Assembly: GCA_017456545.1 (NCBI GenBank)
Contig: JAFTJE010000007.1
Span: forward strand, 14,118 to 78,117
Source: Clostridia bacterium
GTDB taxonomy: Bacteria > Bacillota > Clostridia > Oscillospirales > CAG-272
DNA length: 64,000 nucleotides
Reading direction: 5' to 3'
Part shown: positions 4,656 to 63,198 of the stretch, piece by piece
Numbering within the stretch: the first letter of the stretch is position 1
How the letters are laid out: every line of letters begins with the position of its first letter
Translations under genes and position numbers: made by a program
The notes under the pieces: generated by a model
The model's input: the letters and a program-made list of their open reading frames with translations, nothing else
Told to the model about the DNA's origin: nothing
The model's database searches: none

Positions 4656-4660
4656 GAATA

Positions 4661-4686
4661 CTCCCCCATTTCAGGGGGAGCTTTTC
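4661..4686 (+). terminator. Rho-independent terminator after the GH78 gene
   Basis: Stem CTCCCCC (4661-4667) pairs with GGGGGAG (4674-4680), loop ATTTCA, followed by CTTTTC. Confidence 0.7.
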
Positions 4687-4719
4687 ATCCTTGGGCACAG
4701 ACCGATATACCAAAATCAA

Positions 4720-4748
4720 AAAGGCTTTCGCAAAATGCGAAAGCCTTT
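4720..4748 (-). terminator. Hairpin terminator downstream of the GH94-like gene (palindromic, may act in both directions)
   Basis: Stem AAAGGCTTTCGC pairs with GCGAAAGCCTTT (12 bp), with T/A runs on both flanks. Lies 6 nt after the stop of the minus-strand gene. Confidence 0.7.
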
Positions 4749-4753
4749 TATTA

Positions 4754-7090: not shown

Positions 7091-7203
7091 TTTTTCTCCT
7101 TTTCAAACCTATCGGTTTTCTATTTTTTTCTGTACCTTATTTACTTACCAATGATTGTATTTTACAAGCTCGGTGCGTTATATACACCGAGCTTGTTTTG
7201 AAA

Positions 7204-25246: not shown

Positions 25247-25362
25247 TGTTGCAAGAAATACAAATATTTGATATAATGATAAAAAAATTCCCAACCCAAC
25301 GGCAGATGATGTTACCCAATTAGTGAAGCAACATGTTGAGTTCACAAAAGGAGGTGATAAAA

Positions 25363-26970
25363 ATGACAGAAAAGGAAGCATTACTCCACGCCCTTGAAAA
25401 CGAAATGGTATCCAAAATTTACGGTTTTTGCCGTACGAGGCTGAAATCCGTAAGTGACGCAGAGGATTTGTCCCAGGATATTTGCTTAGAGGTACTCAAA
25501 TCCATACATTCGGGTAAGAAAATAGATAATATTAACGCCTTTGTGTGGACGGTTTCCAATCATTTGTTCTTTAATTGGTTAAGGAAAAAAAGGTACGGGA
25601 CCGTAGCATATATAGATGATGCCACAATGTCCGAGGAGGATGTTGAAGAAGAATTTATCCTCTCGGAGCAGAAAAGCCTTTTAAGACGGGAGCTTTCCCT
25701 CATGTCATACAATTATCGCCGTGCCATCATTATGCATTACTTTGACAATATGTCCTGTGAGGAAATAGGAAAAGCCCTCGGAAAAAGCGAGGGTACAGTC
25801 AAATGGTGGCTATACGACGCAAGACAAGCTATTGAGAAAGGAATGAATACTATGAGAAATTACGGAGAAAGAAGCTACCGACCGGGAAATCTTTTTATTT
25901 CCTGTACAGGTAATCCCGGCTCTGATATGGAGCCTGTGTCCTGTGCCAAACGAAAATCCACACAAAACATTTTACTTTGTGCTTACAAGGAGCCTGTTAC
26001 CGTTACAGAGCTTTGCGAGGAGCTTGGCATTTCTGCTCCTTACATTGAGGACGAGATTGATTATCTCTGTAAAAATCAGCTTATGGAAGAGGTATCAAAG
26101 GGTAAATACCAGACGGATTTTGTAATACTTCCGGGCAGAAATCCCGATATTGGAAATAAAATTTACGCATACGCCTTCCCCGATTTTTACAAAAAGCTCA
26201 TAAATTATCTTGAAAGCAAAAGGGATATGCTTTCAAGCCCAGCATTTAATACCGCAGGCTTTGAATGGAGCCGTCTGCTTTGGGTATATATCCACATTTT
26301 TTCGGAATTCTGCGTAAAATACTACAGATACTATGGAGATATAAAATATATTAGATACGATGATATTCCACTTCGTCCCAACGGAGGCAAATGGATAGCC
26401 TTCGGATTTGATAACAGCGACACATCCCCCAAGGAATTTATGCCCTATCACGGTTGGGACGGTCCTATCCATAAGCTTGAGCCTGCATATACACAGGGCT
26501 TCTGCCACTATTGGAGTGGTATAGATTCTCAACCGTATCTTGATTTGCCATCAGATGTTTTTGCTCTGTGCAGACAGATAATCAAGGGGGAGATTAAGGT
26601 AGAGGAGCTTAACAATGAGCAGAAATATCTTTTCGGTATTGCCATTGAAAAGCAGCTTTTTGTAAATGAAAACGGTGTATTCAAGCAGAATTATTATTAT
26701 ATCAATAAGACTGAACGCAGAGAAATTGAAAAAATGGCACAGGAATTTGCAAAAAGCGTAAAAGATATTACAGACGGTGCGTATCAGCTTGTACTAAAGG
26801 AATACGAAAGCACCGTACCGAGGCACCTGCATTGGCAGATGGGAAATTTTCTTTCCAACGCATTAACTATATTTGTAACCTGCTCTCTTTACGAGGCTGA
26901 GAAGGAAGGCATTTTATCGGTGCCAACCGATAAGAATAAATACTGGTTAAGCCTTTTTGCATCCGAATAA
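25363..26970 (+). CDS. Sigma-70 family (ECF-like) RNA polymerase sigma factor with a ~350-aa C-terminal extension
   Basis: The start at 25363 has an AAAGGAGGTG RBS. Region 2-like segment DAEDLSQDICLEV and region 4 HTH SCEEIGKALGKSEGTVKWWLYDARQAIEK are present. The remaining ~350 aa were not recognised. Confidence 0.75.
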   Translation: MTEKEALLHALENEMVSKIYGFCRTRLKSVSDAEDLSQDICLEVLKSIHSGKKIDNINAFVWTVSNHLFFNWLRKKRYGTVAYIDDATMSEEDVEEEFILSEQKSLLRRELSLMSYNYRRAIIMHYFDNMSCEEIGKALGKSEGTVKWWLYDARQAIEKGMNTMRNYGERSYRPGNLFISCTGNPGSDMEPVSCAKRKSTQNILLCAYKEPVTVTELCEELGISAPYIEDEIDYLCKNQLMEEVSKGKYQTDFVILPGRNPDIGNKIYAYAFPDFYKKLINYLESKRDMLSSPAFNTAGFEWSRLLWVYIHIFSEFCVKYYRYYGDIKYIRYDDIPLRPNGGKWIAFGFDNSDTSPKEFMPYHGWDGPIHKLEPAYTQGFCHYWSGIDSQPYLDLPSDVFALCRQIIKGEIKVEELNNEQKYLFGIAIEKQLFVNENGVFKQNYYYINKTERREIEKMAQEFAKSVKDITDGAYQLVLKEYESTVPRHLHWQMGNFLSNALTIFVTCSLYEAEKEGILSVPTDKNKYWLSLFASE

Positions 26971-39459: not shown

Positions 39460-41787
39460 ATGAAAAGAAGATACGGAGCCTGGATTGACCTCCCCGGAGT
39501 AAGCACAACTGAGGTTGCACAGATAAGAGAGGCAAGATACGATGAAAATCTCCTGTACCTATATACGGTAAATTACAATCAAGACAAAAGAGCCCTTGAG
39601 GATTCTATGATAGAGGTGTTTATATCCTCACCGAGAAAGGATATTATAAGACTGGAGTCACGCCATTTTTCGGGTAGCCGTGCAAAAATGCCGAAATTTG
39701 AGCTTGACCTTGCTCCTCAGCCAATAAATGTTACGGAAACAGACACAGCCCTTACCGTTATCAGTGGGAATATGCGTCTCGAAATAAATAAAAATCCTGC
39801 ATACTTTGATTTTTATTACAAGGATAAATATTTGACATCCATAGCAAAAAAATGGGACAGAAGCTATATTTCCTATGTTACGGCAGACGGTAAGCCTTAT
39901 ATGGACACCCATTTTTCCGTTGATGTGGCAGAGAAGCTCTACGGTCTCGGAGAACGCTTTACACCCTTTGTAAAGAACGGACAGAGTGTGGATATGTGGA
40001 ACGAGGACGGAGGCACCTGTACAGAGCTTGCATATAAAAACATACCCTTCTACATTTCAAATAAGGGCTACGGTGTATTTGCAAACGACCCCGGTCCTGT
40101 ATCCTTTGAGGTATGCTCCGAGCAGGTATCAAGAGTACAGATATCCGTACCCGGAGAGAAAACAGATATAATGGTAATCGGTGGCGAGAATATGAAGGGT
40201 GTGCTTTCCAATTACTGTGCACTCACAGGCTACCCTGCACTTCCCCCTGCCTGGACCTTCGGTCTTTGGCTTACCTCCTCCTTTACAACCTCCTATGACG
40301 AGGACACTGTAACAGGCTTTGTGGACGGAATGAGAGAAAGAGAAATTCCCCTCAGTGTTTTCCACTACGACTGCTTCTGGATGAAGGAAAACGAATGGTG
40401 TAATTTCCGTTGGGATACAGCTATGTTCCCCGACCCTGTGGCTATGCTTAAGCGTATGAAGGAGAAAAATCTCCATATCTGTGTATGGATAAATCCCTAT
40501 ATCGGTCAGAAATCCCCCCTCTTTGATGAGGCTATGGAGAAGAATTATCTGCTCAACCGTGAAAACGGTGATGTGTGGCAGTGGGACCGTTGGCAATCCG
40601 GAATGGGTCTTGTGGACTTTACCAATCCCGACGCATACAGGTGGTATAAGGATAAGCTCCGTGCCCTTGTTGAAATGGGAGTTGATTGCTTCAAAACCGA
40701 CTTTGGCGAAAGGATACCTACTGATGTAAAATACTTTGACGGCTCCGATGCCCTTCGTATGCACAACTACTACACATACTTATACAATAAATGCGTATTT
40801 GAGCTTCTTGAGGAATGTAAGGGCAAAAATCAAGCTGTTCTCTTTGCGAGAAGTGCAACCGCCGGAGGACAGAAATTCCCCGTGCATTGGGGTGGAGACT
40901 GTACAGCCGACTATCTGTCAATGGCAGAATCCCTCCGTGGTGGGCTTTCCCTTTGTATGTCGGGCTTTGGCTTCTGGAGTCACGATATAAGCGGATTTGC
41001 AAACACAGCCCCCCACCATTTGTTCAAGCGTTGGATAGCCTTCGGACTTTTGTCAACACACTCAAGACTCCACGGCGACACCTCCTACAGAGTTCCCTGG
41101 CTCTTTAACAAGGAGGGCGAGAAAAACGGCGAGGAGGCCTGTGCCGTTACAAAGCACTTTGCAGAGCTTAAATGCTCTCTTATGCCGTATATTTACGCAA
41201 AGGCTGTGGAGGCAAATAAAAAAGGCATACCCGTTATGCGTGCTATGACCCTTGAATTTGAAAATGAAATAACCTGCCATGACCTTGACAGACAGTATAT
41301 GCTTGGTGAAAGCCTCCTTGTTGCACCTGTATTTAAGGAGAACGGTGAGGTGGACTATTACCTCCCCGAGGGAAAATGGACACATCTTTTATCCAACGAG
41401 GTGCGTAAGGGTGGCAAGTGGCAGAGGGACACATACGACTTCTTCTCCCTGCCTCTCTATGTAAGGGAAAACACAATTCTTCCCATAGGCAGCGTTGCTT
41501 CCCGTCCCGATTACGACTACGGAAAGAATATTACATTACACATATTTGAGCTGAATGACAAGGCTGAGACTACCGTATACGGTACGGACAGCAATACTAT
41601 TTTTACAGTAAAATGTGAGAAAAACGGTAGTACGGTACGCATTTTACTTGACAAGCTACCCGAAAATGCAAAGATTATCCTTCGCAATATCCTCGATATT
41701 TCATATGTCTCGGGAGCTGAGGCACAATCCTGTGAGCTTGGTACACTCCTCACTGTCAGCAGTAAAGAAATTACAGTTCAGCTGTAA
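39460..41787 (+). CDS. GH31 alpha-xylosidase (YicI-like)
   Basis: 775 aa. Contains the nucleophile segment CFKTDFGE and the acid/base segment HWGGDC. Confidence 0.85.
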   Translation: MKRRYGAWIDLPGVSTTEVAQIREARYDENLLYLYTVNYNQDKRALEDSMIEVFISSPRKDIIRLESRHFSGSRAKMPKFELDLAPQPINVTETDTALTVISGNMRLEINKNPAYFDFYYKDKYLTSIAKKWDRSYISYVTADGKPYMDTHFSVDVAEKLYGLGERFTPFVKNGQSVDMWNEDGGTCTELAYKNIPFYISNKGYGVFANDPGPVSFEVCSEQVSRVQISVPGEKTDIMVIGGENMKGVLSNYCALTGYPALPPAWTFGLWLTSSFTTSYDEDTVTGFVDGMREREIPLSVFHYDCFWMKENEWCNFRWDTAMFPDPVAMLKRMKEKNLHICVWINPYIGQKSPLFDEAMEKNYLLNRENGDVWQWDRWQSGMGLVDFTNPDAYRWYKDKLRALVEMGVDCFKTDFGERIPTDVKYFDGSDALRMHNYYTYLYNKCVFELLEECKGKNQAVLFARSATAGGQKFPVHWGGDCTADYLSMAESLRGGLSLCMSGFGFWSHDISGFANTAPHHLFKRWIAFGLLSTHSRLHGDTSYRVPWLFNKEGEKNGEEACAVTKHFAELKCSLMPYIYAKAVEANKKGIPVMRAMTLEFENEITCHDLDRQYMLGESLLVAPVFKENGEVDYYLPEGKWTHLLSNEVRKGGKWQRDTYDFFSLPLYVRENTILPIGSVASRPDYDYGKNITLHIFELNDKAETTVYGTDSNTIFTVKCEKNGSTVRILLDKLPENAKIILRNILDISYVSGAEAQSCELGTLLTVSSKEITVQL

Positions 41788-51046: not shown

Positions 51047-51075
51047 TTGTATTTTTATGCACAAGGTGTTATAAT
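51047..51075 (+). promoter_or_regulatory. Predicted extended -10 sigma-A promoter of the giant surface-protein gene
   Basis: TTGTAT (51047-51052), 17 nt, TATAAT (51070-51075), preceded by TGT (TG-extended). Confidence 0.6.
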
Positions 51076-51135
51076 TTAATTAATTATTTTATAATAATTA
51101 TAAACACAACGATGATTACATATTGGAGGACAGAT

Positions 51136-54100
51136 ATGGAAGAAAAAGCAACTACATTCATCAAATGCGAATGTGAAAACGGCGTATTTGTATGGAAGCA
51201 TCCGGCTGAAAGCTTCGATTCGTCTTGCGTTGTCGATGTTAAAAGTGACCAGGAGGCTGTATTTGCCGTTGGCAAGGAGATAGTAGATATTCTCCCCAGA
51301 GGCAGCTATCGCCTTACTCCTCAAGCAACACCCGGACTCACAAGGCGTTTTGGCCGAGTAGCAGGCATTAACGATCAGTTCCAGTGCCAGCTTTATTTTG
51401 TGAACAAGGCAACCCCCTCAGCAGCAGAGTGGGAGTTTGATGAGAAGATTCAGTATATGGATCCCAAGCTCTCAATCCCCGTGCTTCTCGGTGCTAAGGG
51501 TAGCGTAGCATTCAAGGTAGCCAACACCCCCAAGATTCTTATGGGTTCTATGGGAAATGACTGTATTGGAGATCAGGCTAAGCTTATGCAGATACTGACT
51601 GCATTTGCTTTGCCCAGAATCAAGGCGTATATCATGAGATATATTACCACAAACAAGACTCCCATTACAGAGCTCGAAAACAATATACAGACACTTACAC
51701 CCTTTGTATTCAATCTTTTGTACAATGACCTTATGGGTATCGGTGTTCAGCTGTTCGGCTTCCGTATAGCTTCATTTGACAAGCAGAGAGCAGGTGCATT
51801 CCCCCAGCAGGCTCCTCAGCAGGCACAGTCAGCTCAGCCCCAGGCAAGACCTGTAGCTCCCCAGCCTCAGCAGGCTCCTCAGCAGGCTCCTCAGCAGGCT
51901 GCTCCCTCTCCCGAGCAGATAGCAGAGGGCTTTTATATGAAGGCTATGGCTCTCGCTTCGCAGAACAAGTTTGACGAGGCGATAGAAATCCTTTCCAAGA
52001 TTCCCAAGTTCAAGGACAGCGAGGAAAAGATTGAGCTTATTAAGCAAAAGAAGGAGGATATGCAGAAGGAGATTACCTATACTCAGGCTATCCAGCATAT
52101 GAAGGCTAACTCCAACAATATCCCCGCACTCAAGAAAATAATCGAGATAATCACTCCCATTGCCGACTATAAGGATACAAAGAAGCTTATCTCCACCATC
52201 GAGGCCCGTTGCGAGGAGCTTAAGGTACTCGAGGAAAAGAAAAAGGCGGAGGCTGAGAAGCTTGCTGCCGAGAAGAAGGTAAAGCAGGAAAAGAGAAAGC
52301 GTGCTATGAAGCGTTTTTGCAAGATCGGTATTCCGATAATTGCTTTCGTTGTAGCAGCTGTTCTTACTACATTACTCTTCATTGTACCTACAGTTCAGAT
52401 CGGTAATGCAGACGATCTTCTTTTGCAGGGTAAGTACGACGAGGCTCTTAAAATATATAAGGACCTTGACGGCTTCTCCAACAGCGACCAGAGAATTTCT
52501 GTAGCTAAGGGTGCCAAGCAGATTGAAAACGGTAACTTCAAGGGTGGTATCAACGCTATCCTTTCAGCAGGCGTTCCCGTAACTCTTACATACAATATGG
52601 GTGGAGGCGACTTCTCCGGTAATGCTTACCTCAGTGCTAACGGCGGCTCCGTAGCTTCTACTCCCTCTCTCCTCTCCTCAACAGGAAATACTGTTGTGGT
52701 TCCTCTTGCAGATGCTCCCGCTACTGTAGTTGAAAGCTATGCGGCAGGCAGCTCCGTGAAGGATATTAAGACTCCCGGCAGACAGGGCTATACATTCGTT
52801 AAATGGAAGCTCGCATCCCAGTCCTTTACAATTGAGGGTGGCGAAAAGTACGCGGTAGTTCTCACAGCAGAATGGTCCTGCAACGATTACAGCATTTCCT
52901 ATACCCTCGACGGTGGAAAAATGAACGGTGCTGTATTTGCATATACAGCTGAAAGCGATGACATTGTTCTTCCCATTCCCACCAAAACAGGTTACACATT
53001 CCTTGGCTGGACAGGAACAGACCTTTCCACTCCTACAAAGAATGTTACAATTCCCACAGGCAGTGCAGGAAACAGATCCTACAAGGCTAACTGGAAGGTT
53101 AACGACTATACTATCACCTTCGATACTGAGGGTGGTACTCTCGCAAACGGAAATGAGCTTGGCGTTTTCTACGGCTCAACTTATATTCTTCCCACACCTG
53201 TAAAGGCAGGTCACACCTTCATTGGCTGGTTTGACAGCAATAATATGAAGTATATGAACGGCGTATGGTCAAGAACAGAGGATGTTACCCTTATCGCTAA
53301 GTGGGAGGTAAACACATACAGTATCTATTTCGCAGATACATATGTAGACAATACCTATTTACCCGGAAGCACATCTGCAAAGATAGATGTTGTGTACGGT
53401 AACACATACACCCTTATTACCAATGTAATAAGACCCGGTTACACATTTGCCGGCTGGTATGCAGATTCATCCCTTACAACTCCCTTCGTACCCGGTGAAT
53501 ACCTTACAGACGGCGATACAACACTGTATCCTAAGTTTACAGCCAACTCCTACACTGTAACTCTCGATCCCCAGGGTGGAGAATTTACAGAAGATACAGA
53601 GGTTACTGTAACCTTTGATGCATCCTATGACCTCGGTGAGCCCACAATGACCGGCTACGACTTCCTTGGCTGGTACTATATGAACGGCTCCGAGGAAACA
53701 TTTGTCGCTTCAAGCGGAACATGGGGAATAAGCAAGAATGTAGAGCTTTATGCTAAATGGGGTATATCAGAGTATGTACTCACACTCGAAAACATTGAGC
53801 ATATCAGCGGTGAGGATTATATCCACTCCACAACCTCCAACATCCAGGTGGATGTAATATTCTTCGAGGACTTTACTCTCCCCACACCCACAAGAACAGG
53901 TCACACCTTTGGTGGCTGGGTTGACAGTGAGGGTACTCCCTACGAAAGCGGAGAATGGCTCTATGCTTATAACCTTACTCTCTTCCCCGTATGGAATCCT
54001 ATTACATACACAGTAACACTCGAGCCCAATGAGGGAACAGTTGATCCCACAGCTATGGAGATTCCCTATGATGCCGAGTACCTGCTCCCCACACCTTACC

Positions 54101-57100
54101 GTCAGGGCTATGAGTTCCTCGGTTGGTACGACGAAAACGGCGATTTGGTTGATACAGAGGGTACATGGGCTATCGCAGAGGATTGCACTCTTACAGCAGA
54201 GTGGGAGGTAGGTGTTTACACAGGTATCCTTGACGATACAAACGGCGGATGCCATATAACCTACAATTACAATTACACAGGCTGTCCCGAGCCCGATGTT
54301 GTTTTCGTGGCTAACGGCGGAACACTTGCATATCCCGAGGTGCCTACAAGAGAAAATTATGTATTTGCAGGCTGGTACACAGATGCAGCTTGCACAAGTG
54401 AATATACATTCTCCGGAGATATTACATCAAACATTACACTTTATGCAAGATGGGTAAGCTATACCGTAACCTCCAACAGATGGACCGAGTACGACGGTAT
54501 ACTCTACTCTACAAACAAGGACCACAGCTCCAGCTCTGCATACCAGATAACAGCTGAAACCGATATGATAGTTTACTTCGATTACAAGGTATCCTCCGAG
54601 TCCGGTTGGGATAAGCTTTTCATCAGAAGAAACGGCTATAACCTGGTAGAAACCTCCGGTAACGGCTCTTATATCTCATACTCAGTATCACTTACAGCGG
54701 GCGATGTCCTCTCCTTTAACTATACAAAGGACGGAAGTGCAAGCAGCTATGATGACTGTGCATATATCAGAAATCTCAGATTCCACCGTTCTTATGTAAG
54801 CTCTGCTACCGTAACAAATGCAGGCTACACATACGACGACAATTCAACCTTCGAGTTCAATAATTACTACGGCTACGACTATGAGCTTCCCACACCTGTA
54901 CGCCCCGGCTACACATTCCTCGGCTGGACAGTTAACGGTGAGCCTGTAGAGAGCACAGGTACATGGACATACGAAACCGATGTAACCTTCGTTCCCACTT
55001 GGGAAATCACAACATACACCCTTACAATCGTTTATGCAGACGGCGTAACAGAGAATGAAACCATTACTCTCCACTACGGTGACGAGTTTACCCTTGATGA
55101 GCTTACAAGAGTAGGCTACGAATTCCTTGGCTGGTTCGACGAGGGCGGCACAGAGTACACAAGCGGTACATGGACAACAGAAAGCGATGTTACAGTTACT
55201 GCAAGCTGGGAGGCACACGAGCATACAATCACATTTGAGGATTCCGTTTATGTTCCCGGCTCACTCACAGTTACATACAATTTCAACGGTGGTAGCGGAA
55301 GCACATCCTCTGTAACTCTTAACGAGGGTGATACACTTTCATATCCCACAAAGCCCTGGAAGTCCGGTTATGTATTCCTTGGCTGGTTCACAGATTCTGC
55401 TTGCTCAACTCCCTTCAACTTCGATAAGGAATTGACAGAGGATACAACCCTCTACGCAGGCTGGCTTGACCTTAGCACAACATACGGCACAAGCTTCTCT
55501 AACCCCGACCCCACCGAGTATGCATCAGGCGTATATCTCACAGTTACCCCTGCTACAGCAACAAAATACATTATTGTAAGAGCTACAGAATCAGGAAGCC
55601 ACACTGTAAAGTGCTATTCAAGCTCCACCTACAACAGTGGCAGATTCTATGTAAGTGTTTACAATTACACCACAAGCACATCTATTTATTCCAGCTCTCT
55701 TGTAGATGAATATACAAGAACTATCAACTTCGACTGTGCCGAGGGCGATATTATCGTTATCAGCTACAGCCGTTACTCAGATAGCATCAGTGCTTACTTC
55801 TGGTTCTCAGGCTTTGAAAGCGTAACAAGCACAGCTACTGCTGCTCCTACTCCTTCTGTTAACTACGGCAGCGATTCCTCCTATGCAAAGGATGTTGAAT
55901 TCGGCGAGATTGTTACACTTCCCGTTCCTTACCGTCAGGGCTATACATTCCTCGGCTGGTACAACGGTGAGGACCTTGTAGAAAGCGGTGCATGGAGCAT
56001 TGACAGCGATGTCACACTTGTTCCTATGTGGGAGGTAACAGACTATGTTATCACTCTTGATCCCGCAGGAGGAACAGTAAGCCCTGAATCCATCACTCTT
56101 AACTACGGTGATTCCTACGAGCTTACAGACCCCGTAAGAACAGGCTATGACTTTGTAGGCTGGTTCGCAGAGGACGGTACACAGTACACATCCGGCACAT
56201 GGACACTTGAAAGCGACCTTACACTTACTGCCCGTTGGACTGCTCACACCCACTCCGTTACATTTGAAGATGTTTCCGGTGTTAAGGACAGTATAAGAGT
56301 AATGTACGACTATAACTATGCAGGAAGCATTCCTTCTATAGTTACAGTTGCAGACGGTGCTATTCTTTCATATCCCACAATGCCTACAAGATCCGGCTAT
56401 GTATTCACAGGCTGGTACAGAGATGCAGCTTGCACTGTTCCCTATGACTTTACAGGTGATATTAGAGCCAACATGACACTCTATGCAGGCTGGTATGCAA
56501 CATCATCCTTTAATGCAAGTGCTTACTACTACGGTCAGGTTGATCCTACTCAGTATACAACATCTGCATTCGCATGCAGCACATCAAGCACAAGCAGCTC
56601 CTATCCCTACCAGTTCTCTATTGTAGCTATGGAATCCGGAGAGCATACTATCTCCTACTATAACTACTACTCATCAACCAGCTACGGCTACTATCTTACA
56701 ATTACTAACCTCACCTCCGAGGAAACACTCCTGGAGAGCACAAGAATAACATCAACATCTGCTATTGACCTTGATTTTGAATGCGAGGCAGGAGATCTCA
56801 TTCTTGTATCCTTCTACAGAGCAAGCACAAGCTACACATCAACAGCTTACTTCCTCTTCGACGGCTTTGAGGCTGTAACAAGCACAGCAACAGCTGCTTC
56901 CGATTATTCATGCGTACAGCATAATGAAAGCTCATCCATTTCTACAACAGTATCCTTCGGTGATAATGTAGTTCTTCCTACTCCCAACCGTTACGGCTAC
57001 ACCTTCCTTGGCTGGTACAACGGTGAGGACCTTGTAGAAAGCGGTGCATGGAGCATCGACAGCGATGTTACACTTACTCCTATGTGGGAGGAATCCGAGT

Positions 57101-60100
57101 ATACCATTACTCTTGATGCTAACGGTGGAGTGTCCTCCGAGACATCCATCACAGTATCCATGTCAGATACAGTTACTCTTCCCACACCTACATGGGAGGG
57201 ACACACCTTCCTTGGCTGGTATAACGGCCGTACTCTCTATACAGGCGGCACATGGACCAACGACACAGATATAACTCTTGTTGCTAAGTGGTCCACCACA
57301 CAGCATACCGTTACATTTGATGATATCGCAGCAGATTCTGCTACTGTTACAATTGTATACGATCGCAATTATCCGGGCTGTCTCAAAGACGAGGTAAATT
57401 ATACAAACGGTCAGGATATTGCATATCCCTCTGCTCCTGTAAGACCCGGCTACACATTTACAGGCTGGTACACAGATGCAGATTGCACAGAGTTCTTTGA
57501 CTTCTCCGAGAATGTAACAGAGGATATTACTCTCTATGCAGGCTGGATTGTAGCTTCCTCTGCTCAGTTCATTGACCCTACGGAATATTCATACGGAACA
57601 CCTTACCAGAGATCTACAAGCGGTACTAACCAGCTTAGCCCCTATAAGTTCTACATTTTGGCTAATGAAGAAGGTACTCACGCTATTTACTACTCCAACT
57701 CTACATCAGCGGAGAGCAGCAAGTACTATCTCACAGTACGAAATGCTACAACAGGTGAGCTTATCATGGCTGAAACAGCTGTTAACCATGAGGTGTCTTC
57801 TTGGCTCTATTTCAACTGTGATGCAGGTACAGTTATCGAAATATCCTTCTACAGATATTCATCCAACTCCACAGCATCCTTCTACTTTACTGGCTTTACA
57901 GCCATGACAAGTATTGCTAAGGCAGAGATTTATACCTCCGACCTTGCACACGATACAGAGTCCACCTTCAGCGAAACTGTAAACTACGGTGAGGAATTTA
58001 CTCTTCCCACACCTGTACGCCCCGGCTACACCTTTACAGGCTGGTACAACGGTGAGACACTTATCGAGACAGAGACAATCACTGTCACAGGTGACATTAC
58101 TCTTACTCCCTCCTGGTCTGTAAACTCCTATGAGCTCACATTCGATACAGACTGTGATACAGTAAACCCCGAGGATATGACAGTAACCTACGATGCTCCC
58201 TTTACTCTCCCCGTAGTAACACGCACAGGCTATACATTTGCCGGCTGGTACAACGGTGAGACACTCATTGAGGATGGAACATGGAGCTATACAGAGGATA
58301 TGGAGCTTGTAGCTCATTGGACAGCCAATACCTACAATATCATATATAAGGATTTCCAGCCCGCTGTAACAATTACCTACGATTTCAACTACGAGGGCTC
58401 CACACCCTCATCGGTAGTTGTTAATGCCGGTGATACTCTCACATATCCCACAGTTCCCACAAGAACAAATTATGTATTTACAGGCTGGTACACAGATGCT
58501 GAGTGCACAAACGAGTACACATTCAGTAGTGAAATCACTGCTGATATGACCCTTTACGCAGGATGGGGATCTTATTCCGTATCCTACAATAAGTGGGCAA
58601 CATCCGACGGTCTCATTTATTCCACTAACCAATCAAGCTCCTCCACCTCTTACTATCTGATAACAGCAGGAAGCACCTTGAGAATAACCTTCAGTTACAG
58701 AGTATCCTCCGAGAGTGGTTATGATAAGCTGTCTATTCAGAAAAACGGCTCTAATTTAATTAGTCCAATTTCCGGAGAAACCAGCTATGTATCATACACT
58801 GTAATACTTAATGAGGGTGATACACTCAGATTCGGTTATGCAAAGGACGGCAGTGCAAACCGTGGTGATGACCGTGCATATATAAAGGATATCACCTTCC
58901 ACCAGACATATGAAAGCACAGCAACAGTGTCTGAAACCGCTACTGCTAATCAGGGTGTCTGCATAGGTGAAGCAACTTATAATGCAACCATCTCCTACGA
59001 CAGCCAGCTCAACCTGCCCACTATTACCCGACCCGGCTATACATTTACAGGCTGGTATATCAGTAACGATATTAACAGACCTATGGAGGACGGTATTACT
59101 TGGAATTACACTGAGGATATTACACTCTTCCCCATGTGGACTCCCAACATCTATAATGTAACATTTGATTATACAGACGGAGACGGTGCATCCCCCGAGG
59201 ATGCTACCGTATCCTTCGGTGCTCCCTTCGATTTTGTTGAAGTAACACGCACAGGCTACACCTTCGGTGGCTGGTCCTACAACGGAACAGTTCTCCATGA
59301 CGGTGATGAGTGGAATATCCCCTCCGATGTTACACTTACTCCCGTTTGGATTCCCAATACCTACAATGTAACCTTCAACGATACAACTCCCACAAGAGGA
59401 ACAGCTACCGTTATCTATGTGGATAACAACGGTTCAAGCAATACATCATATACTTACAATAACGGTGATGCATTCCCCGCTGACCGTGTTCCCACAAAGG
59501 CAGGCTACATTTTCAAGGGCTGGTGCATTGACGAGGAATGTACAATTCTCTTTGACAATACACAGCCTATTGACGGAGATACTATTCTCTACGCTAAATG
59601 GGAGGCATTCGCACCCTCTGATGCATATCAGACAATAGAGACCAATGCTCCCACCTACACCTCATCTAATACACTGACAATTTCAACTCACGGAACAAAC
59701 AGCACAAGAAAGCAGTACCGTGTAATTACAGCAAATGAGGCAGGCGAGCACAAAATCTACTTTACAGCAGGTAATGCAACCGGGTTGGAGCTCTTTAATC
59801 TCAGCATTGTAAACAATACAACAGGTGATGTTATAAGAGCAGATGCAGAGGTTCCCGCAGCTACAGTTGAGACTCCCTTTGAATCCGTAACCTTTAACTG
59901 CAATGCAGGTGATACCATTATCCTCTGCTTCTACAGCATTTACGACGGATATTCAACCAATGCACAGTTCTACTTCGAGGGCTTTGAAGCTCGTCCTGAG
60001 TCCACCTCCACAGTGCTTGGTAATGTTACAGGCTTTAACTTCTCCGTAGAGACCTTTACAATGGCTGTAGAGTACGATAGCACAATCGATATCCCCACAC

Positions 60101-60216
60101 CCGTTCGTGATGGCTACACCTTTGATGGCTGGTACATCGGTACAGAGCCCTTTACCTCTGAGACATGGACAATAACAGAGGATATCACTCTTACTCCCTA
60201 CTGGTCAGCTAACTGA
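51136..60216 (+). CDS. Giant (3026 aa) single-pass membrane protein: SPFH/Band-7-like head, Q/P linker, helical region, TM helix, 24 Listeria-Bacteroides (Flg_new-type) repeats plus 6 unassigned modules
   Basis: The ATG at 51136 has a GGAGGA RBS 5 nt upstream. There is no N-terminal signal peptide. A basic cluster KRKRAMKRFCK precedes the TM helix IGIPIIAFVVAAVLTTLLFIV (nt 52315-52386). The motif G[YH]xFxGW...TL[YT]A.W recurs 24 times. There is no LPXTG motif or C-terminal anchor. Confidence 0.85.
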   Translation: MEEKATTFIKCECENGVFVWKHPAESFDSSCVVDVKSDQEAVFAVGKEIVDILPRGSYRLTPQATPGLTRRFGRVAGINDQFQCQLYFVNKATPSAAEWEFDEKIQYMDPKLSIPVLLGAKGSVAFKVANTPKILMGSMGNDCIGDQAKLMQILTAFALPRIKAYIMRYITTNKTPITELENNIQTLTPFVFNLLYNDLMGIGVQLFGFRIASFDKQRAGAFPQQAPQQAQSAQPQARPVAPQPQQAPQQAPQQAAPSPEQIAEGFYMKAMALASQNKFDEAIEILSKIPKFKDSEEKIELIKQKKEDMQKEITYTQAIQHMKANSNNIPALKKIIEIITPIADYKDTKKLISTIEARCEELKVLEEKKKAEAEKLAAEKKVKQEKRKRAMKRFCKIGIPIIAFVVAAVLTTLLFIVPTVQIGNADDLLLQGKYDEALKIYKDLDGFSNSDQRISVAKGAKQIENGNFKGGINAILSAGVPVTLTYNMGGGDFSGNAYLSANGGSVASTPSLLSSTGNTVVVPLADAPATVVESYAAGSSVKDIKTPGRQGYTFVKWKLASQSFTIEGGEKYAVVLTAEWSCNDYSISYTLDGGKMNGAVFAYTAESDDIVLPIPTKTGYTFLGWTGTDLSTPTKNVTIPTGSAGNRSYKANWKVNDYTITFDTEGGTLANGNELGVFYGSTYILPTPVKAGHTFIGWFDSNNMKYMNGVWSRTEDVTLIAKWEVNTYSIYFADTYVDNTYLPGSTSAKIDVVYGNTYTLITNVIRPGYTFAGWYADSSLTTPFVPGEYLTDGDTTLYPKFTANSYTVTLDPQGGEFTEDTEVTVTFDASYDLGEPTMTGYDFLGWYYMNGSEETFVASSGTWGISKNVELYAKWGISEYVLTLENIEHISGEDYIHSTTSNIQVDVIFFEDFTLPTPTRTGHTFGGWVDSEGTPYESGEWLYAYNLTLFPVWNPITYTVTLEPNEGTVDPTAMEIPYDAEYLLPTPYRQGYEFLGWYDENGDLVDTEGTWAIAEDCTLTAEWEVGVYTGILDDTNGGCHITYNYNYTGCPEPDVVFVANGGTLAYPEVPTRENYVFAGWYTDAACTSEYTFSGDITSNITLYARWVSYTVTSNRWTEYDGILYSTNKDHSSSSAYQITAETDMIVYFDYKVSSESGWDKLFIRRNGYNLVETSGNGSYISYSVSLTAGDVLSFNYTKDGSASSYDDCAYIRNLRFHRSYVSSATVTNAGYTYDDNSTFEFNNYYGYDYELPTPVRPGYTFLGWTVNGEPVESTGTWTYETDVTFVPTWEITTYTLTIVYADGVTENETITLHYGDEFTLDELTRVGYEFLGWFDEGGTEYTSGTWTTESDVTVTASWEAHEHTITFEDSVYVPGSLTVTYNFNGGSGSTSSVTLNEGDTLSYPTKPWKSGYVFLGWFTDSACSTPFNFDKELTEDTTLYAGWLDLSTTYGTSFSNPDPTEYASGVYLTVTPATATKYIIVRATESGSHTVKCYSSSTYNSGRFYVSVYNYTTSTSIYSSSLVDEYTRTINFDCAEGDIIVISYSRYSDSISAYFWFSGFESVTSTATAAPTPSVNYGSDSSYAKDVEFGEIVTLPVPYRQGYTFLGWYNGEDLVESGAWSIDSDVTLVPMWEVTDYVITLDPAGGTVSPESITLNYGDSYELTDPVRTGYDFVGWFAEDGTQYTSGTWTLESDLTLTARWTAHTHSVTFEDVSGVKDSIRVMYDYNYAGSIPSIVTVADGAILSYPTMPTRSGYVFTGWYRDAACTVPYDFTGDIRANMTLYAGWYATSSFNASAYYYGQVDPTQYTTSAFACSTSSTSSSYPYQFSIVAMESGEHTISYYNYYSSTSYGYYLTITNLTSEETLLESTRITSTSAIDLDFECEAGDLILVSFYRASTSYTSTAYFLFDGFEAVTSTATAASDYSCVQHNESSSISTTVSFGDNVVLPTPNRYGYTFLGWYNGEDLVESGAWSIDSDVTLTPMWEESEYTITLDANGGVSSETSITVSMSDTVTLPTPTWEGHTFLGWYNGRTLYTGGTWTNDTDITLVAKWSTTQHTVTFDDIAADSATVTIVYDRNYPGCLKDEVNYTNGQDIAYPSAPVRPGYTFTGWYTDADCTEFFDFSENVTEDITLYAGWIVASSAQFIDPTEYSYGTPYQRSTSGTNQLSPYKFYILANEEGTHAIYYSNSTSAESSKYYLTVRNATTGELIMAETAVNHEVSSWLYFNCDAGTVIEISFYRYSSNSTASFYFTGFTAMTSIAKAEIYTSDLAHDTESTFSETVNYGEEFTLPTPVRPGYTFTGWYNGETLIETETITVTGDITLTPSWSVNSYELTFDTDCDTVNPEDMTVTYDAPFTLPVVTRTGYTFAGWYNGETLIEDGTWSYTEDMELVAHWTANTYNIIYKDFQPAVTITYDFNYEGSTPSSVVVNAGDTLTYPTVPTRTNYVFTGWYTDAECTNEYTFSSEITADMTLYAGWGSYSVSYNKWATSDGLIYSTNQSSSSTSYYLITAGSTLRITFSYRVSSESGYDKLSIQKNGSNLISPISGETSYVSYTVILNEGDTLRFGYAKDGSANRGDDRAYIKDITFHQTYESTATVSETATANQGVCIGEATYNATISYDSQLNLPTITRPGYTFTGWYISNDINRPMEDGITWNYTEDITLFPMWTPNIYNVTFDYTDGDGASPEDATVSFGAPFDFVEVTRTGYTFGGWSYNGTVLHDGDEWNIPSDVTLTPVWIPNTYNVTFNDTTPTRGTATVIYVDNNGSSNTSYTYNNGDAFPADRVPTKAGYIFKGWCIDEECTILFDNTQPIDGDTILYAKWEAFAPSDAYQTIETNAPTYTSSNTLTISTHGTNSTRKQYRVITANEAGEHKIYFTAGNATGLELFNLSIVNNTTGDVIRADAEVPAATVETPFESVTFNCNAGDTIILCFYSIYDGYSTNAQFYFEGFEARPESTSTVLGNVTGFNFSVETFTMAVEYDSTIDIPTPVRDGYTFDGWYIGTEPFTSETWTITEDITLTPYWSAN
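51796..51915 (+). repeat. Low-complexity Gln/Pro/Ala linker with CAGCAGGCTCCTCAG DNA repeats
   Basis: Encodes AFPQQAPQQAQSAQPQARPVAPQPQQAPQQAPQQAAPSPE. Confidence 0.8.
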
Positions 60217-60290: not shown

Positions 60291-60422
60291 ATAAGAACAT
60301 CACCCTTAGTGTCTGCTCTTTTTTGATAAATAAGCATCCACCCGCCTATCGGGTGGTATTATACCCAGAAACCAATAAGCATCCCCCGTGAAAATGGGGG
60401 ATGCTTACTACTTATTTAATTA

Positions 60423-61811
60423 TTACATTCTGAAATAGGATATGGAATTATTATAGCAAATATCCTTGATAACATTTCCCACAAGCTCAAGGTCCGTTGT
60501 CATTTCTCCGTTCTCCATAAGCTCACCTAGGTAGGAGCAAAGTATCCTACGGAAGTAGTGATGTCTGGGATAGGAGAGGAGGGAACGGCTGTCTGTAAGC
60601 ATACCCACAAAGGCTCCTATATGTCCTGTGGCTGTCAAATCCTCAAGATGCTTTTCCATTCCTACCTTATTATCAAGGAACCACCATGCAGGACCGTACT
60701 GTATCTTTCCCCTTGCCTCGTCGGACTGGAAGCATCCCATAAGTGTCATAATTTCGGCATTCATTTTGGGATTTAAGTTAAATATAATAAGTTTGGGGAG
60801 CTTGCCCTCAAGATTCAGCTTATCCATAAGACGGGAGAGCATGCCTATGCTGTTTGTATCCGAAATACTGTCGAAGCCTGTGTCAAGACCCAGCTTTTCC
60901 AGCATTACGGAGTTGTTATTCCTCATAGCACCTATATGGAGCTCTGTGGAGATATTATACTCGGCATACATCTTCATCAGGAAGTATGTGATATAGCCCT
61001 TGAATATTTTACTGTCCTCAGAGGAAGGAGCCTCTCCCCCTATAACCTTCTTAAGAACAGCATCTGCTTCCTCTCTTGTAGGTACGGCATATATCTGCTC
61101 CACAGCTATATCGCTGGCAGTGGTACCAACATCAATAAATGCCTTGAGCCTTTTTTCAAGAGCTGTCTCAAGGTCGGAAACAGACTCTATTTTATTTGTA
61201 AGTGCCTCTAATTTTCCGAGGAAGGAAAGATAACCCTTAGCCTCAATATTCATTATCTTATCGCCACGGAATGCGGGAATAACCTTGAAGGCGTAGTTCT
61301 TTTCCTTAATTTTTTCAAAGGTGGAAAGGTCGTCAAAGACCTCATTTGTAGTAAACACATGGGTTACATTGGAACCCTCTATAAGGGACTGGGGGGTAAT
61401 ACTGTTTTCCTTTATATAGGCGTTACACTGCTCCCAGATAGCCTCTGCATTTCTTCCGTTAATTTCAAGCTCACAGCCGAAGTATTCCTTAAGCTCCACC
61501 TGTGACCAGTGATAAAGAGGATTGCCAAAGGCTGTGCCGAGGACTGTGCAGTATGTAATAAACTTTTCCTTGTTGCTCTTATTACCTGTAATGTATTCCT
61601 CGCTGACACCGTAGTTTCTCATAAGACGCCATTTATAATGGTCGCCTGCAAGCCAGATTTCAAAAATATCGCCAAAGCACTTGTTCTCAAGTATCTGCTT
61701 CTCGGGTAGGTGGCAATGGTAGTCAAAAATAGGCATATCCTTAGCGTAGTCCCTGTAAAGAAGCTCCGCTGTTTTATTCTTTAATAAAAAATTATCCTTA
61801 ATGTAGCTCAT
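60423..61811 (-). CDS. uxaC: Glucuronate isomerase
   Basis: 462 aa. N-terminus FLLKNKTAELLYRDYAKDMPIFDYHCHL. Confidence 0.92.
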   Translation of the reverse strand: MSYIKDNFLLKNKTAELLYRDYAKDMPIFDYHCHLPEKQILENKCFGDIFEIWLAGDHYKWRLMRNYGVSEEYITGNKSNKEKFITYCTVLGTAFGNPLYHWSQVELKEYFGCELEINGRNAEAIWEQCNAYIKENSITPQSLIEGSNVTHVFTTNEVFDDLSTFEKIKEKNYAFKVIPAFRGDKIMNIEAKGYLSFLGKLEALTNKIESVSDLETALEKRLKAFIDVGTTASDIAVEQIYAVPTREEADAVLKKVIGGEAPSSEDSKIFKGYITYFLMKMYAEYNISTELHIGAMRNNNSVMLEKLGLDTGFDSISDTNSIGMLSRLMDKLNLEGKLPKLIIFNLNPKMNAEIMTLMGCFQSDEARGKIQYGPAWWFLDNKVGMEKHLEDLTATGHIGAFVGMLTDSRSLLSYPRHHYFRRILCSYLGELMENGEMTTDLELVGNVIKDICYNNSISYFRM

Positions 61812-61821
61812 ATTTATCTCC

Positions 61822-63198
61822 TTATAAGGTTACTCCATCCTTGAAAATTGCTATTTCCTCATAGCCGTTTATTTCGTTTTTTGTCTTCTCTCCCGATGCA
61901 ACTCTGCACACATAGTCGAGGAAACGGTCGGTTATTACATCCATCTCCTCACCCTCGAGAATGGGAGAGGCATCAAAATCTATCCATCCTCTCTTCCTCT
62001 CTGCAAGGGAACGGTTAGTGGATATTTTAACTGTGGGTACAGGTGCACCGAGGGGAGTGCCCCTGCCCGTGGTAAATAAAATCATATGCACGCCGGACGC
62101 CATAAGATTAGTTACTGCCACAATATCGTTACCCGGTCCTTTCAGAAGAGAAAGACCGTTTTTTGTAAGAACATCTCCGTAATCAAGCACATCAACCACG
62201 GGAGAAAGGCCTCCCTTTTGTACACATCCCAAGGATTTTTCCTCAAGGGTAGTAATTCCACCTGCCTTATTACCCGGGGATGGGTTTTCGTATATTACCT
62301 GGTTGTGCCTTGTAAAATAATCCTTGAAATTGTTTATTAAAGATACAGTTTTGTCAAATACCTCGGAGCTTACACACCTTTCCATTAAAAGATGCTCGGC
62401 ACCGAACATTTCGGGCACCTCTGTAAGCACACAGCTTCCTCCGTAGGAAACAAGCCTGTCACAAAGACTGCCCACTAAGGGATTGGCTGTAATACCGCTG
62501 TATCCGTCACTTCCTCCGCATTTTAAGCCGAGACGGAGCCTTGATATGCTTACTTTTTCCGGCTTAAAGGTATCTCTGTATGCCTTCAGCTTATTGATTA
62601 TAGCCACACCCTCGGCAATTTCGTCATCAAAATCCTGGCAATTCAAGAATTTTACACGGCTTTCGTTATACTCGCCGAGGACCTTCTTAATTTCTGAAAT
62701 ATTACTGTTCTCACAGCCCAGACCGAGGACAAGCACTCCACCTGCATTGGGATGTCTTATCATACCGCAGAGAATCCTTCTTGTTATATCCTGGTCATCT
62801 CCCAGCTGAGAGCATCCGTAGGGATGGGGAAAATACTTTGCTCCCGTTTTTTTCGCAAGTATTTCAGCAGTTTTATTGACACATCCCACGGTATTTACTA
62901 TCCAGATGTCATTTCTTATACCCACATCTCCGTTTTCTCTTACATATCCGTAAAAGAATTTATCCGTGGGTACAGCCCTTATTCCGTAGTCCTTATAGCT
63001 GTATGTATATTCAAGATTTCCCGAAAGATTGGTTTTCAGATTATGGGTGTGCACATGCTCTCCAACAGATATATCGGCTATGGCGTGACCGATGGGAGAG
63101 CCGTATTTAATTACATTTTCTCCACACTTAATTGGATATAGGGCATACTTATGACCGTCGTCACGCACCTCTACATTATCATTTGGATGAATCCGCAT
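61822..63198 (-). CDS. uxaA: Altronate dehydratase (UxaA family)
   Basis: SAF-like N-terminus (IHPNDNVEV...GENVIKYGSPIGHA...GEHVHTHN) plus the large UxaA C-terminal domain. Confidence 0.88.
   Translation of the reverse strand: MRIHPNDNVEVRDDGHKYALYPIKCGENVIKYGSPIGHAIADISVGEHVHTHNLKTNLSGNLEYTYSYKDYGIRAVPTDKFFYGYVRENGDVGIRNDIWIVNTVGCVNKTAEILAKKTGAKYFPHPYGCSQLGDDQDITRRILCGMIRHPNAGGVLVLGLGCENSNISEIKKVLGEYNESRVKFLNCQDFDDEIAEGVAIINKLKAYRDTFKPEKVSISRLRLGLKCGGSDGYSGITANPLVGSLCDRLVSYGGSCVLTEVPEMFGAEHLLMERCVSSEVFDKTVSLINNFKDYFTRHNQVIYENPSPGNKAGGITTLEEKSLGCVQKGGLSPVVDVLDYGDVLTKNGLSLLKGPGNDIVAVTNLMASGVHMILFTTGRGTPLGAPVPTVKISTNRSLAERKRGWIDFDASPILEGEEMDVITDRFLDYVCRVASGEKTKNEINGYEEIAIFKDGVTL

Follow-up and report, generated by a model that had tools for sequence, protein, structure and literature searches.

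A giant gene and its layout

We analysed a 64,000-nucleotide (nt) stretch of contig JAFTJE010000007.1 from an uncultured herbivore-gut Clostridia bacterium (positions 14,118 to 78,117; hereafter the window), in which a single gene at 51136-60216 encodes a protein of 3,026 residues. The protein combines a cytoplasmic SPFH head, a disordered linker, a helical juxtamembrane module, one transmembrane (TM) helix, and an extracellular array of Flg_new repeats into which beta-sandwich cassettes are inserted. Its parts and their relatives point to a fusion between an SPFH protein and a type II surface protein. As the first-pass annotation of this DNA had stated, the gene is one uninterrupted open reading frame (ORF) of 3,026 stop-free codons with a good ribosome-binding site, the GGAGG lying 6 nt 5' of the ATG. 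The features up to the start of the repeat array are as follows.

51136-60216, + strand: giant ORF, 3,026 codons, translated without a stop
51136-51780, + strand: cytoplasmic SPFH head, aa 1-215 (Band_7_1 [PF13421]; Foldseek; ratio of nonsynonymous to synonymous substitution rates [dN/dS] 0.12)
51781-51921, + strand: Gln/Ala/Pro-rich disordered linker, aa 216-262 (composition; AlphaFold2 predicted local distance difference test [pLDDT] below 50)
51922-52323, + strand: pre-TM juxtamembrane module, aa 263-396 (AlphaFold2 helices; homology to the type II proteins of relatives L012 and L010)
52324-52392, + strand: single TM helix, aa 397-419, IGIPIIAFVVAAVLTTLLFIVPT (Kyte-Doolittle 2.85; within the AlphaFold2 helix 348-419)
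52393-52581, + strand: post-TM extracellular hairpin (YDEALKIYKDLDGFSNS at aa 434) and spacer, aa 420-482 (layout shared with relatives)

The gene is continuous and under purifying selection

Identical copies of the giant protein are encoded on three metagenome contigs. An ortholog of 3,017 residues, 92% identical and in the same synteny, is present in the metagenome-assembled genome (MAG) 'Clostridia bacterium RGIG3999' from roe-deer caecum, where it is publicly annotated simply as 'InlB B-repeat-containing protein' (MBQ8392437.1). Comparison with this ortholog gives dN/dS values of 0.12 for the head, 0.054 for the helical region, 0.048 for the TM helix and juxtamembrane segment, and about 0.22 for the ectodomain, with a range of 0.05-0.3 across the parts of the protein. 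Purifying selection acts on all parts of the protein, the head and the junction among them.

The source is metagenome-derived and rich in repeats, and an assembly chimera or sequencing artefact could in principle have joined separate SPFH and repeat-protein genes. The same junction recurs, however, in an independent MAG from another sample, and purifying selection extends across it. The internal DNA repeats of the gene are only 60-82% identical, making assembly collapse unlikely. On the strength of the three contigs, the syntenic ortholog, the selection, and the diverged repeats, we rejected a chimera or pseudogene, and we consider an artefact extremely improbable; the earlier claim of one continuous gene stands on the identical contigs and the independent ortholog.

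The head is a Band_7_1 SPFH domain

Pfam matches Band_7_1 at aa 35-211 with an E value of 4.5e-14 (53 bits versus a cutoff of 24), and identity between the head and standalone Band_7_1 proteins is 29-33% across about 208 aa. To any relative, the identity of the head is at most 33% at near-full-length coverage and up to 40% in partial matches. Thirty-seven columns are invariant in the giant and 27 relatives, including FxWKHP, QEA, F.C..YF.NK, W99, and G119/G122; the family's WGT motif reads WEF in the giant head. Using the N-terminal part modeled with AlphaFold2 from a 28-sequence alignment (mean pLDDT 65), Foldseek returned SPFH proteins for all of the top 36 PDB matches of the head, namely stomatin, flotillin, HflK/C, prohibitin, and QmcA (E values of 1.8e-5 to 1e-3, probability 1.0). 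PDB sequence searches with the head, as a single sequence or as a profile, gave nothing significant, and fold comparison alone succeeded. The giant head is a member of the Band_7_1/SPFH superfamily: profile searches, which recover Flg_new in the repeats as well, and structure prediction followed by Foldseek both bear out the Band_7_1-type head of the first-pass annotation.

The more specific likeness to YdjI-type proteins holds in part. The SPFH domain is homologous, but the tail domains of the YdjI type are absent, and nothing like its operon is seen among the window genes examined. Pfam finds no SHOCT and no Zn-ribbon domain in the giant; the Q/P linker occupies the place of the family's post-SPFH parts, and conserved columns after aa 215 are unshared. 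A SHOCT remnant at aa 238-289 was rejected as unproven, being visible in a pairwise comparison only (E = 0.009) and invisible to Pfam. The protein has no N-terminal hydrophobic segment, and its sole TM helix is C-terminal to the SPFH domain. No PADLOC v2 family matches the giant head or the SPFH proteins of its relatives.

A juxtamembrane module and one TM helix set the topology

The linker consists of 34% Q, 23% A, and 21% P, is predicted to be disordered, and differs in length between the orthologs; the Gln/Pro composition previously noted for aa 221-260 is borne out. The module that follows contains two 'YKDS'-type helical hairpins, FDEAIEILSKIPKFKDS at aa 279 and IADYKDT at aa 342, then a K/E-rich helix and a basic cluster. 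AlphaFold2 predicts that aa 259-419 are helical, with a continuous helix spanning 348-419. Pfam at E ≤ 10 yields no credible family for the juxtamembrane segment, and PADLOC v2 gives the giant only a coiled-coil-type LmuB match (E = 3.8e-4, aa 278-398). This region (aa 262-390) had been described as TPR-like with a K/E coiled coil. It is indeed helical and has the K/E helix, but it is actually an anchor module common to type II proteins with Zn-ribbon and TIR domains.

The TM helix at aa ~397-419 is the only Kyte-Doolittle peak above 1.2 in the 3,026 aa (2.85, versus 1.15 for the next) and is 100% conserved in the ortholog. Ten K/R residues lie in the 20 positions before it, versus three in the 21-residue window at aa 422-442. 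The helix and basic cluster agree within three residues with those placed earlier at nt 52315-52386. Because there is one TM helix, the charge is positive inside, and Flg_new arrays are extracellular in nature, the topology is type II (N-in/C-out), with the head inside the cell and the repeats outside, as proposed.

At 52306-52392, Met391-KRFCK followed by the hydrophobic helix resembles the N terminus of a signal-anchored protein, which agrees with a fusion origin. The sequence upstream of the corresponding ATG (52306) as an internal start is purine-rich, but this is forced by K/E codons.

Relatives encode SPFH and type II proteins as neighboring genes

We examined the genomic contexts of five standalone Band_7_1 relatives (P0245, P0001, P0155, P0222, and P0272). 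In all five, the gene lies 14-170 nt upstream of a gene for a protein of ~230 aa with four TM helices (4TM), which belongs to no Pfam family and has a helical tail with a conserved 'RYSDPMS' motif. Single-pass type II proteins come next in four of the five contexts. These are built from a cytoplasmic Zn-ribbon and TIR_2, a basic cluster, a TM helix, a 'Y..A...F..LG.YKDS' hairpin, and an ectodomain that is DUF6273 or unassigned. The L009 4TM partner is a fusion in its own right, joined to a TM-hairpin-DUF6273 unit. The genes downstream of Band_7_1-SHOCT, encoding the 4TM and type II proteins, occupy the following positions.

L013, 6169-11032: 4TM and type II proteins
L012, 6151-9549: 4TM and type II proteins
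L010, 2937-9348: 4TM and type II proteins
L009, 6147-9927: 4TM and type II proteins

A TM-centered comparison and motif scan show that the order of basic cluster, TM helix, and post-TM hairpin is common to the giant, the type II proteins of L009, L012, and L013, and two smaller SPFH fusions (P0028 and P0032, described below). Further, aa 268-394 of the giant are collinear with the pre-TM region of the L012 TIR protein (27% identity over 130 aa, E = 3e-8) and with that of the L010 TIR protein (E = 1e-5), the alignment scores lying 12-13 standard deviations above composition-preserving shuffles. Pre-TM homology is demonstrated for these two proteins, and pre-TM hairpins and the K/E helix occur in some type II members. 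The cytoplasmic domain of the L009 4TM protein (aa 114-246) also matches the giant pre-TM region by BLAST (E = 9e-7), a match that is anchored by the TM helix and hairpin and on which we do not rely. The giant thus falls within a type II 'head-TM-YKDS hairpin-ectodomain' grouping of gut Clostridia that we define here. Given the pre-TM homology and the gene adjacency in relatives, a Rosetta-stone fusion is the most economical explanation of the giant.

The relatives' operons have further features of their own. Ahead of the standalone Band_7_1-SHOCT gene is one for a 280-aa Xer-like tyrosine recombinase, and the gap between the two contains 23-28-nt inverted repeats (ACATAATC..CATTATGTTGTA), 82-100% complementary, that flank a segment of ~220-240 bp.

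L013, 4681-4708 and 4949-4976: inverted repeats
L005, 4700-4722 and 4959-4981: inverted repeats
L012, 4704-4731 and 4950-4977: inverted repeats

By its sequence, the flanked segment resembles an invertible promoter, and the SPFH/4TM/TIR operon may be phase-variable. In L010, the TIR type II protein is seemingly split in two ORFs (6995-8644 and 8644-9348), of which the 549-aa product ends just after the basic cluster and the 234-aa product starts with the TM helix; a frameshift, a pseudogene, or a real division of the protein could each explain this. Among the operon partners, PADLOC reports only the candidate PDC-S66, for one TIR domain (6.8e-10). The SPFH-SHOCT/4TM/Zn-ribbon-TIR operon could be an undescribed membrane system, and a defense or sensing role is possible for those relatives with TIR-bearing neighbors.

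The TIR_2 proteins, the PDC-S66 match, and the recombinase with inverted repeats upstream of the SPFH gene would also fit an account in which the giant is a phase-variable surface-sensing or anti-phage component, its fiber serving to divert or detect phages or other cells. The giant itself, however, is devoid of effector domains, TIR included, the window contains neither a recombinase homolog by tblastn nor inverted repeats flanking the giant gene, and PADLOC has no family for the SPFH proteins on either side of the comparison. We therefore regard such a role for the giant as very unlikely.

Smaller SPFH-TM-ectodomain fusions exist

An exhaustive phmmer search with aa 1-220 against 1.84 billion cluster representatives (50% identity clusters) gave 741 matches, of which the best 150 were listed. 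Only one of these 150, the ortholog's cluster, has the giant form; the remaining matches listed are 150-670 aa long and at most 40% identical. A scan of JGI metagenome contigs found no close relatives of the giant, and a word-indexed homolog search gave two matches with aa 1-430, swamped by low complexity, and none with the head alone.

SPFH-TM-ectodomain fusions account for 4 of the 150 cluster representatives listed. Besides the giant form, P0026 joins Band_7_1 and a TM helix to DUF6273, P0032 to RCC1 repeats, and P0028 to 240 aa of no recognized kind; P0016, P0040, and P0005 are tail-anchored Band_7_1 forms. The smaller fusions look independent, since each head is nearer to non-fused relatives than to other fused heads; that of P0032 is 91% identical to the non-fused P0006. 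The architecture class therefore extends beyond the giant. The first-pass annotation knew of no described fusion of such a head to a giant Listeria-Bacteroides repeat array. The giant form is indeed rare, being found in one cluster among the matches listed, but its architecture is shared by the three smaller proteins. We found no paper joining SPFH with Listeria-Bacteroides repeats, nor one describing the anchor module or the SPFH/4TM/TIR operon.

These observations bear on whether the head is a passive passenger, acquired by chance fusion and lacking any SPFH-specific activity, whose role would at most be that of a stopper for a signal-anchored adhesin. The head is highly diverged, the family's oligomerization-associated extension is lost, the Met391 region looks like the original N terminus of a signal-anchored protein, and such fusions are rare among the representatives listed. 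Passenger status is harder to reconcile with a head dN/dS as low as or below that of the ectodomain, with most of the family-invariant residues kept in the head, and with at least three other independent SPFH-TM-ectodomain fusions together with the conserved gene adjacency. We consider a passenger head unlikely.

The ectodomain carries 24 repeats and six cassettes

The C-terminal 2,596 aa contain 24 Flg_new (PF09479) stretches according to Pfam (E = 1e-227), and a motif count also gives 24; NCBIfam TIGR02543 matches the repeats with an E value of 1e-124. Eight Flg_new repeats are followed by five units of a ~120-aa cassette plus three Flg_new and then by a last cassette with one Flg_new; the super-period is ~1,008-1,056 nt. 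The six cassettes are of two types, A (two copies, 53% identical) and B (four copies, 30-43% identical). The statement that everything past the TM helix is repeats is thus right about the Flg_new array but overlooks the beta-sandwich cassettes inserted in it.

52582-54453, + strand: Flg_new (Listeria-Bacteroides/InlB B-repeat) 1-8, aa 483-1106 (PF09479, motif anchors)
54454-54810, + strand: cassette A1, aa 1107-1225 (AlphaFold2 beta-sandwich, no Pfam family)
54811-55467, + strand: Flg_new 9-11 (Pfam, motif)
55468-55860, + strand: cassette B1, aa 1445-1575, beta-sandwich (AlphaFold2 pLDDT 70-90; 30-43% identical to B2-B4)
55861-56502, + strand: Flg_new 12-14 (Pfam, motif)
56503-56910, + strand: cassette B2, aa 1790-1925
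56911-57552, + strand: Flg_new 15-17 (Pfam, motif)
57553-57939, + strand: cassette B3, aa 2140-2268
57940-58566, + strand: Flg_new 18-20 (Pfam, motif)
58567-58935, + strand: cassette A2, aa 2478-2600 (53% identical to A1)
58936-59607, + strand: Flg_new 21-23 (Pfam, motif)
59608-60021, + strand: cassette B4, aa 2825-2962
60022-60216, + strand: Flg_new 24 and stop codon, without a sorting signal

The giant has no LPXTG motif and no C-terminal hydrophobic tail, and Pfam at E ≤ 0.1 finds no S-layer homology (SLH), dockerin, or choline-binding domain, in line with the first-pass annotation. Pfam at E ≤ 10 gives no credible family for the six cassettes or for a replacement cassette in the ortholog. 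We modeled aa 1107-1575 with AlphaFold2, using four internal repeats as the alignment, and the cassettes are confidently predicted to be all-beta (pLDDT ~88 for A and 70-90 for B). Foldseek matches them to beta-sandwiches of the lectin, CUB, carbohydrate-binding module (CBM), discoidin, and collagen-binding types (YwfG, Elapor1, neuropilin, cubilin, CDTb, and ColG s3), with the best compact superposition on Vibrio VesC (6bqm; 110 columns, root-mean-square deviation of 2.0 Å). For A1, jelly-roll-like folds are also among the matches. All of these matches are generic, and the cassettes are best termed 'binding-module-like'; cassette B and the ortholog's replacement cassette may tentatively be likened to PPC/collagen-binding domains.

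In the ortholog (L002), an unrelated cassette of ~115 aa ('DTYGFLYNSNGDQLIYNDDGG...') takes the place of A1, with flanks more than 90% identical. Cassette A2 has a dS of 1.5 against the ortholog, versus ~0.2 in its flanks, which suggests that it was replaced by recombination. Cassettes have thus been exchanged between orthologs that are 92% identical, at one position at least and probably at a second, in a way that points to recombination, as would be expected where a surface faces ligands or a host. Some 690 aa separate the first cassette from the membrane, a distance that suits a wall-spanning stalk.

A proposed role for the giant protein

We favor a joint reading, with a probability of roughly 0.55, in which the giant joins an SPFH protein to a type II surface protein as a Rosetta-stone fusion, the distal fiber is adhesin-like, and the head clusters or secures the fibers. 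An SPFH gene would have merged with an adjacent type II surface-protein gene to give the giant gene, and such a fusion would imply that SPFH scaffolds and this class of surface proteins normally work together. Flg_new 1-8 would cross the cell wall as a stalk, and the distal cassette-bearing fiber, perhaps on the order of 100 nm, would bind external ligands, probably glycans or particles, making it in effect an adhesin. Held against the inner leaflet, the SPFH head would self-associate or bind partner scaffold proteins and would cluster, immobilize, and mechanically secure fibers that are held by a single TM helix.

The solved SPFH proteins matched by the head are oligomeric membrane scaffolds, and YdjI/SamI forms membrane foci (PMC8581546; bioRxiv 10.64898/2026.02.06.704340), which are points in favor of the scaffold role. 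Proteins with Listeria-Bacteroides repeats figure in the literature as adhesion factors of gut microbes (PMC7883539). This role, the cassette exchange, and the lectin-, CUB-, CBM-, and collagen-binding-like folds of the cassettes are the grounds for a binding fiber, so that an adhesin-like fiber, as first proposed, is a reasonable interpretation. That the head organizes, or signals to, a membrane microdomain is speculation.

Coupling could also run from outside in. The fiber would then be a mechanical or ligand sensor, with the head recruiting membrane-stress machinery of the PspA/ESCRT-III type or other cytoplasmic partners to the attachment site, in the manner of PspA recruitment by YdjI/SamI. 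The family of the head includes a YdjI-like layout of Band_7_1, low-complexity segment, and Zn-ribbon (P0002), and sister type II proteins with the same anchor bear cytoplasmic TIR, a signaling or effector module. The giant head, however, is without the C-terminal parts of YdjI-like proteins, and neither the window genes examined nor the relatives' operons include a PspA, YdjG, or YdjH lookalike. We think this sensing account improbable.

Several observations weigh against the joint reading of an SPFH-secured adhesive fiber. The giant form is carried by only two genomes, and AlphaFold2 models the head with only moderate confidence (pLDDT 50-80). Three parts conserved in the family are missing from the giant, namely the helical segment after the SPFH domain, the Gly-rich segment, and the SHOCT/Zn-ribbon tail. 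In solved SPFH assemblies, a coiled-coil extension builds the cage, and with this extension lost, canonical cage formation by the giant head is doubtful. The fold matches of the cassettes are generic beta-sandwiches belonging to no Pfam family. The L013/L014 operon lies directly after atpA-G-D-C, matching the position of the giant gene after the atp operon in the window (atpD is 83% and atpG 53% identical to those of the window organism, indicating moderate relatedness). This shared position counts in favor of the fusion origin, but the synteny is seen in one of the five relatives' contexts and may be coincidence. Searched by tblastn, the window yields no homolog of the recombinase, the 4TM partner, or the TIR protein of L013. 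Finally, the proposed link to a PspA-type module is not borne out by the window genes examined, which were part of the ORFs of the 64 kb: none resembles PspA, YdjG, or YdjH.

Surroundings of the giant gene

The giant gene is solitary, with a divergent histidine-phosphatase gene upstream and a convergent uxaC downstream; the atp operon and altronate dehydratase are also among its neighbors. Its putative signals are as follows.

51047-51075, + strand: putative promoter, TTGTAT -35 (weak), 17-nt spacer, TGtTATAAT extended -10 (consensus match only)
51125-51138, + strand: Shine-Dalgarno sequence and ATG, GGAGG at 51125-51129, 6-nt spacer
60376-60407, strand not assigned: GC-rich hairpin between the giant gene and convergent uxaC (pattern match only)

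The TG-extended promoter reported earlier is present in that TGtTATAAT lies at 51067-51075, but the -35 agrees with the consensus at only 3/6 positions and a consensus promoter scanner made no call there. The hairpin is a candidate bidirectional terminator.

Many genes for the metabolism of plant polysaccharides and uronates surround it in the window (2505-7090, 39460-41787, and 60423-63198), including those for alpha-L-rhamnosidase, a GH94 phosphorylase, GH31, glucuronate isomerase, and altronate dehydratase. These surroundings fit a fiber-degrading organism of the herbivore gut. At 25333-26970 (+ strand), a 545-aa protein has extracytoplasmic function (ECF)-type sigma-70 regions 2 and 4 confined to aa 27-166, followed by an extension of ~370 aa that Pfam leaves unmatched; the protein may combine a sigma factor with its own regulatory or anti-sigma-like domain. 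A 601-aa ORF at 7204-9009 (- strand), with no Pfam family at E ≤ 1e-5, overlaps the start of 9006-10658 (- strand), which encodes a 550-aa protein with a below-threshold ABC_transp_aux match.

Comparison with known systems and significance

B. subtilis YdjI, which we take to be a PF13421 member, and other Band_7_1 proteins such as the ~375-aa clostridial Band_7_1-SHOCT forms share with the giant a cytoplasmic SPFH domain N-terminal to membrane elements. The helical extension, low-complexity segment, and Zn-ribbon/SHOCT tail of YdjI-type proteins are all gone in the giant, where a covalent link instead joins the SPFH domain to a TM helix and a 2,600-aa ectodomain. Proteins of the YdjI type are soluble, with separate membrane proteins recruiting them (PMC8581546). 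The YdjI/SamI operon includes PspA and the recruiters YdjG/YdjH, whereas the giant gene is next to the atp operon, histidine phosphatase, and uxaC. Proteins composed of Band-7, a C-terminal pair of TM helices, and SHOCT have been described (Ravi et al. 2024, PMC11237479); these and the tail-anchored P0016, P0040, and P0005 resemble the giant in having the TM segment C-terminal to a cytoplasmic SPFH domain, but they end at or just past the membrane, with no large extracellular domain. Flotillin, stomatin, HflK/C, prohibitin, and QmcA share the SPFH fold; in canonical scaffolds, however, an N-terminal TM segment or hairpin comes first and a long C-terminal coiled-coil cage follows, while the giant has the reversed order, with a Q/P linker and no coiled-coil wall.

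On the extracellular side, the giant has long Flg_new arrays in common with the giant InlB-B-repeat 'adhesin-like' proteins of gut bacteria and archaea. It differs from them in lacking a signal peptide, LPXTG motif, and GW or leucine-rich repeat (LRR) module, in its internal signal anchor after a 390-aa cytoplasmic region, and in its regularly spaced non-Flg_new cassettes. The internalins InlA, InlB, and InlH have an N-terminal LRR and inter-repeat region and an LPXTG or GW anchor, whereas Pfam finds no LRR in the giant and LPXTG is absent. NCBIfam internalin models score 205 and 160 bits on the giant, via the B-repeats only, versus cutoffs of 1600 and 1050; the giant is not an internalin. The Zn-ribbon-TIR_2 type II proteins of L009, L010, L012, and L013, of which we found no published description as Zn-ribbon-TIR_2-TM-'YKDS'-ectodomain proteins, follow the same logic of a cytoplasmic head, one TM helix, and a variable ectodomain. 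Their head is a Zn-ribbon plus TIR and their ectodomain comprises 200-400 aa of DUF6273 or unassigned sequence, compared with an SPFH head and 2,600 aa in the giant, and, unlike the giant, they are encoded in operons flanked by a recombinase and inverted repeats.

The covalent fusion, the gene adjacency, and the independent small fusions bear on what SPFH scaffolds organize in bacteria: they name a client class, single-pass type II surface proteins with one anchor module. The annotation of the ortholog hides its SPFH head, and the same may apply to other giant surface proteins. The recombinase/inverted-repeat-flanked operon of SPFH-SHOCT, 4TM, and Zn-ribbon-TIR type II proteins is a candidate for a new membrane-associated system of the gut. 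More tentatively, and with low probability, these proteins may together form an undescribed system of gut Clostridia that physically links Band_7_1 scaffolds beneath the membrane with single-pass type II surface proteins, some TIR-bearing, under the control of apparently invertible promoters. The giant would be its fused extreme, forming self-organizing adhesive platforms that pass force or ligand information across the membrane. If so, it would be the bacterial counterpart of receptors that are tethered to flotillin-type microdomains.

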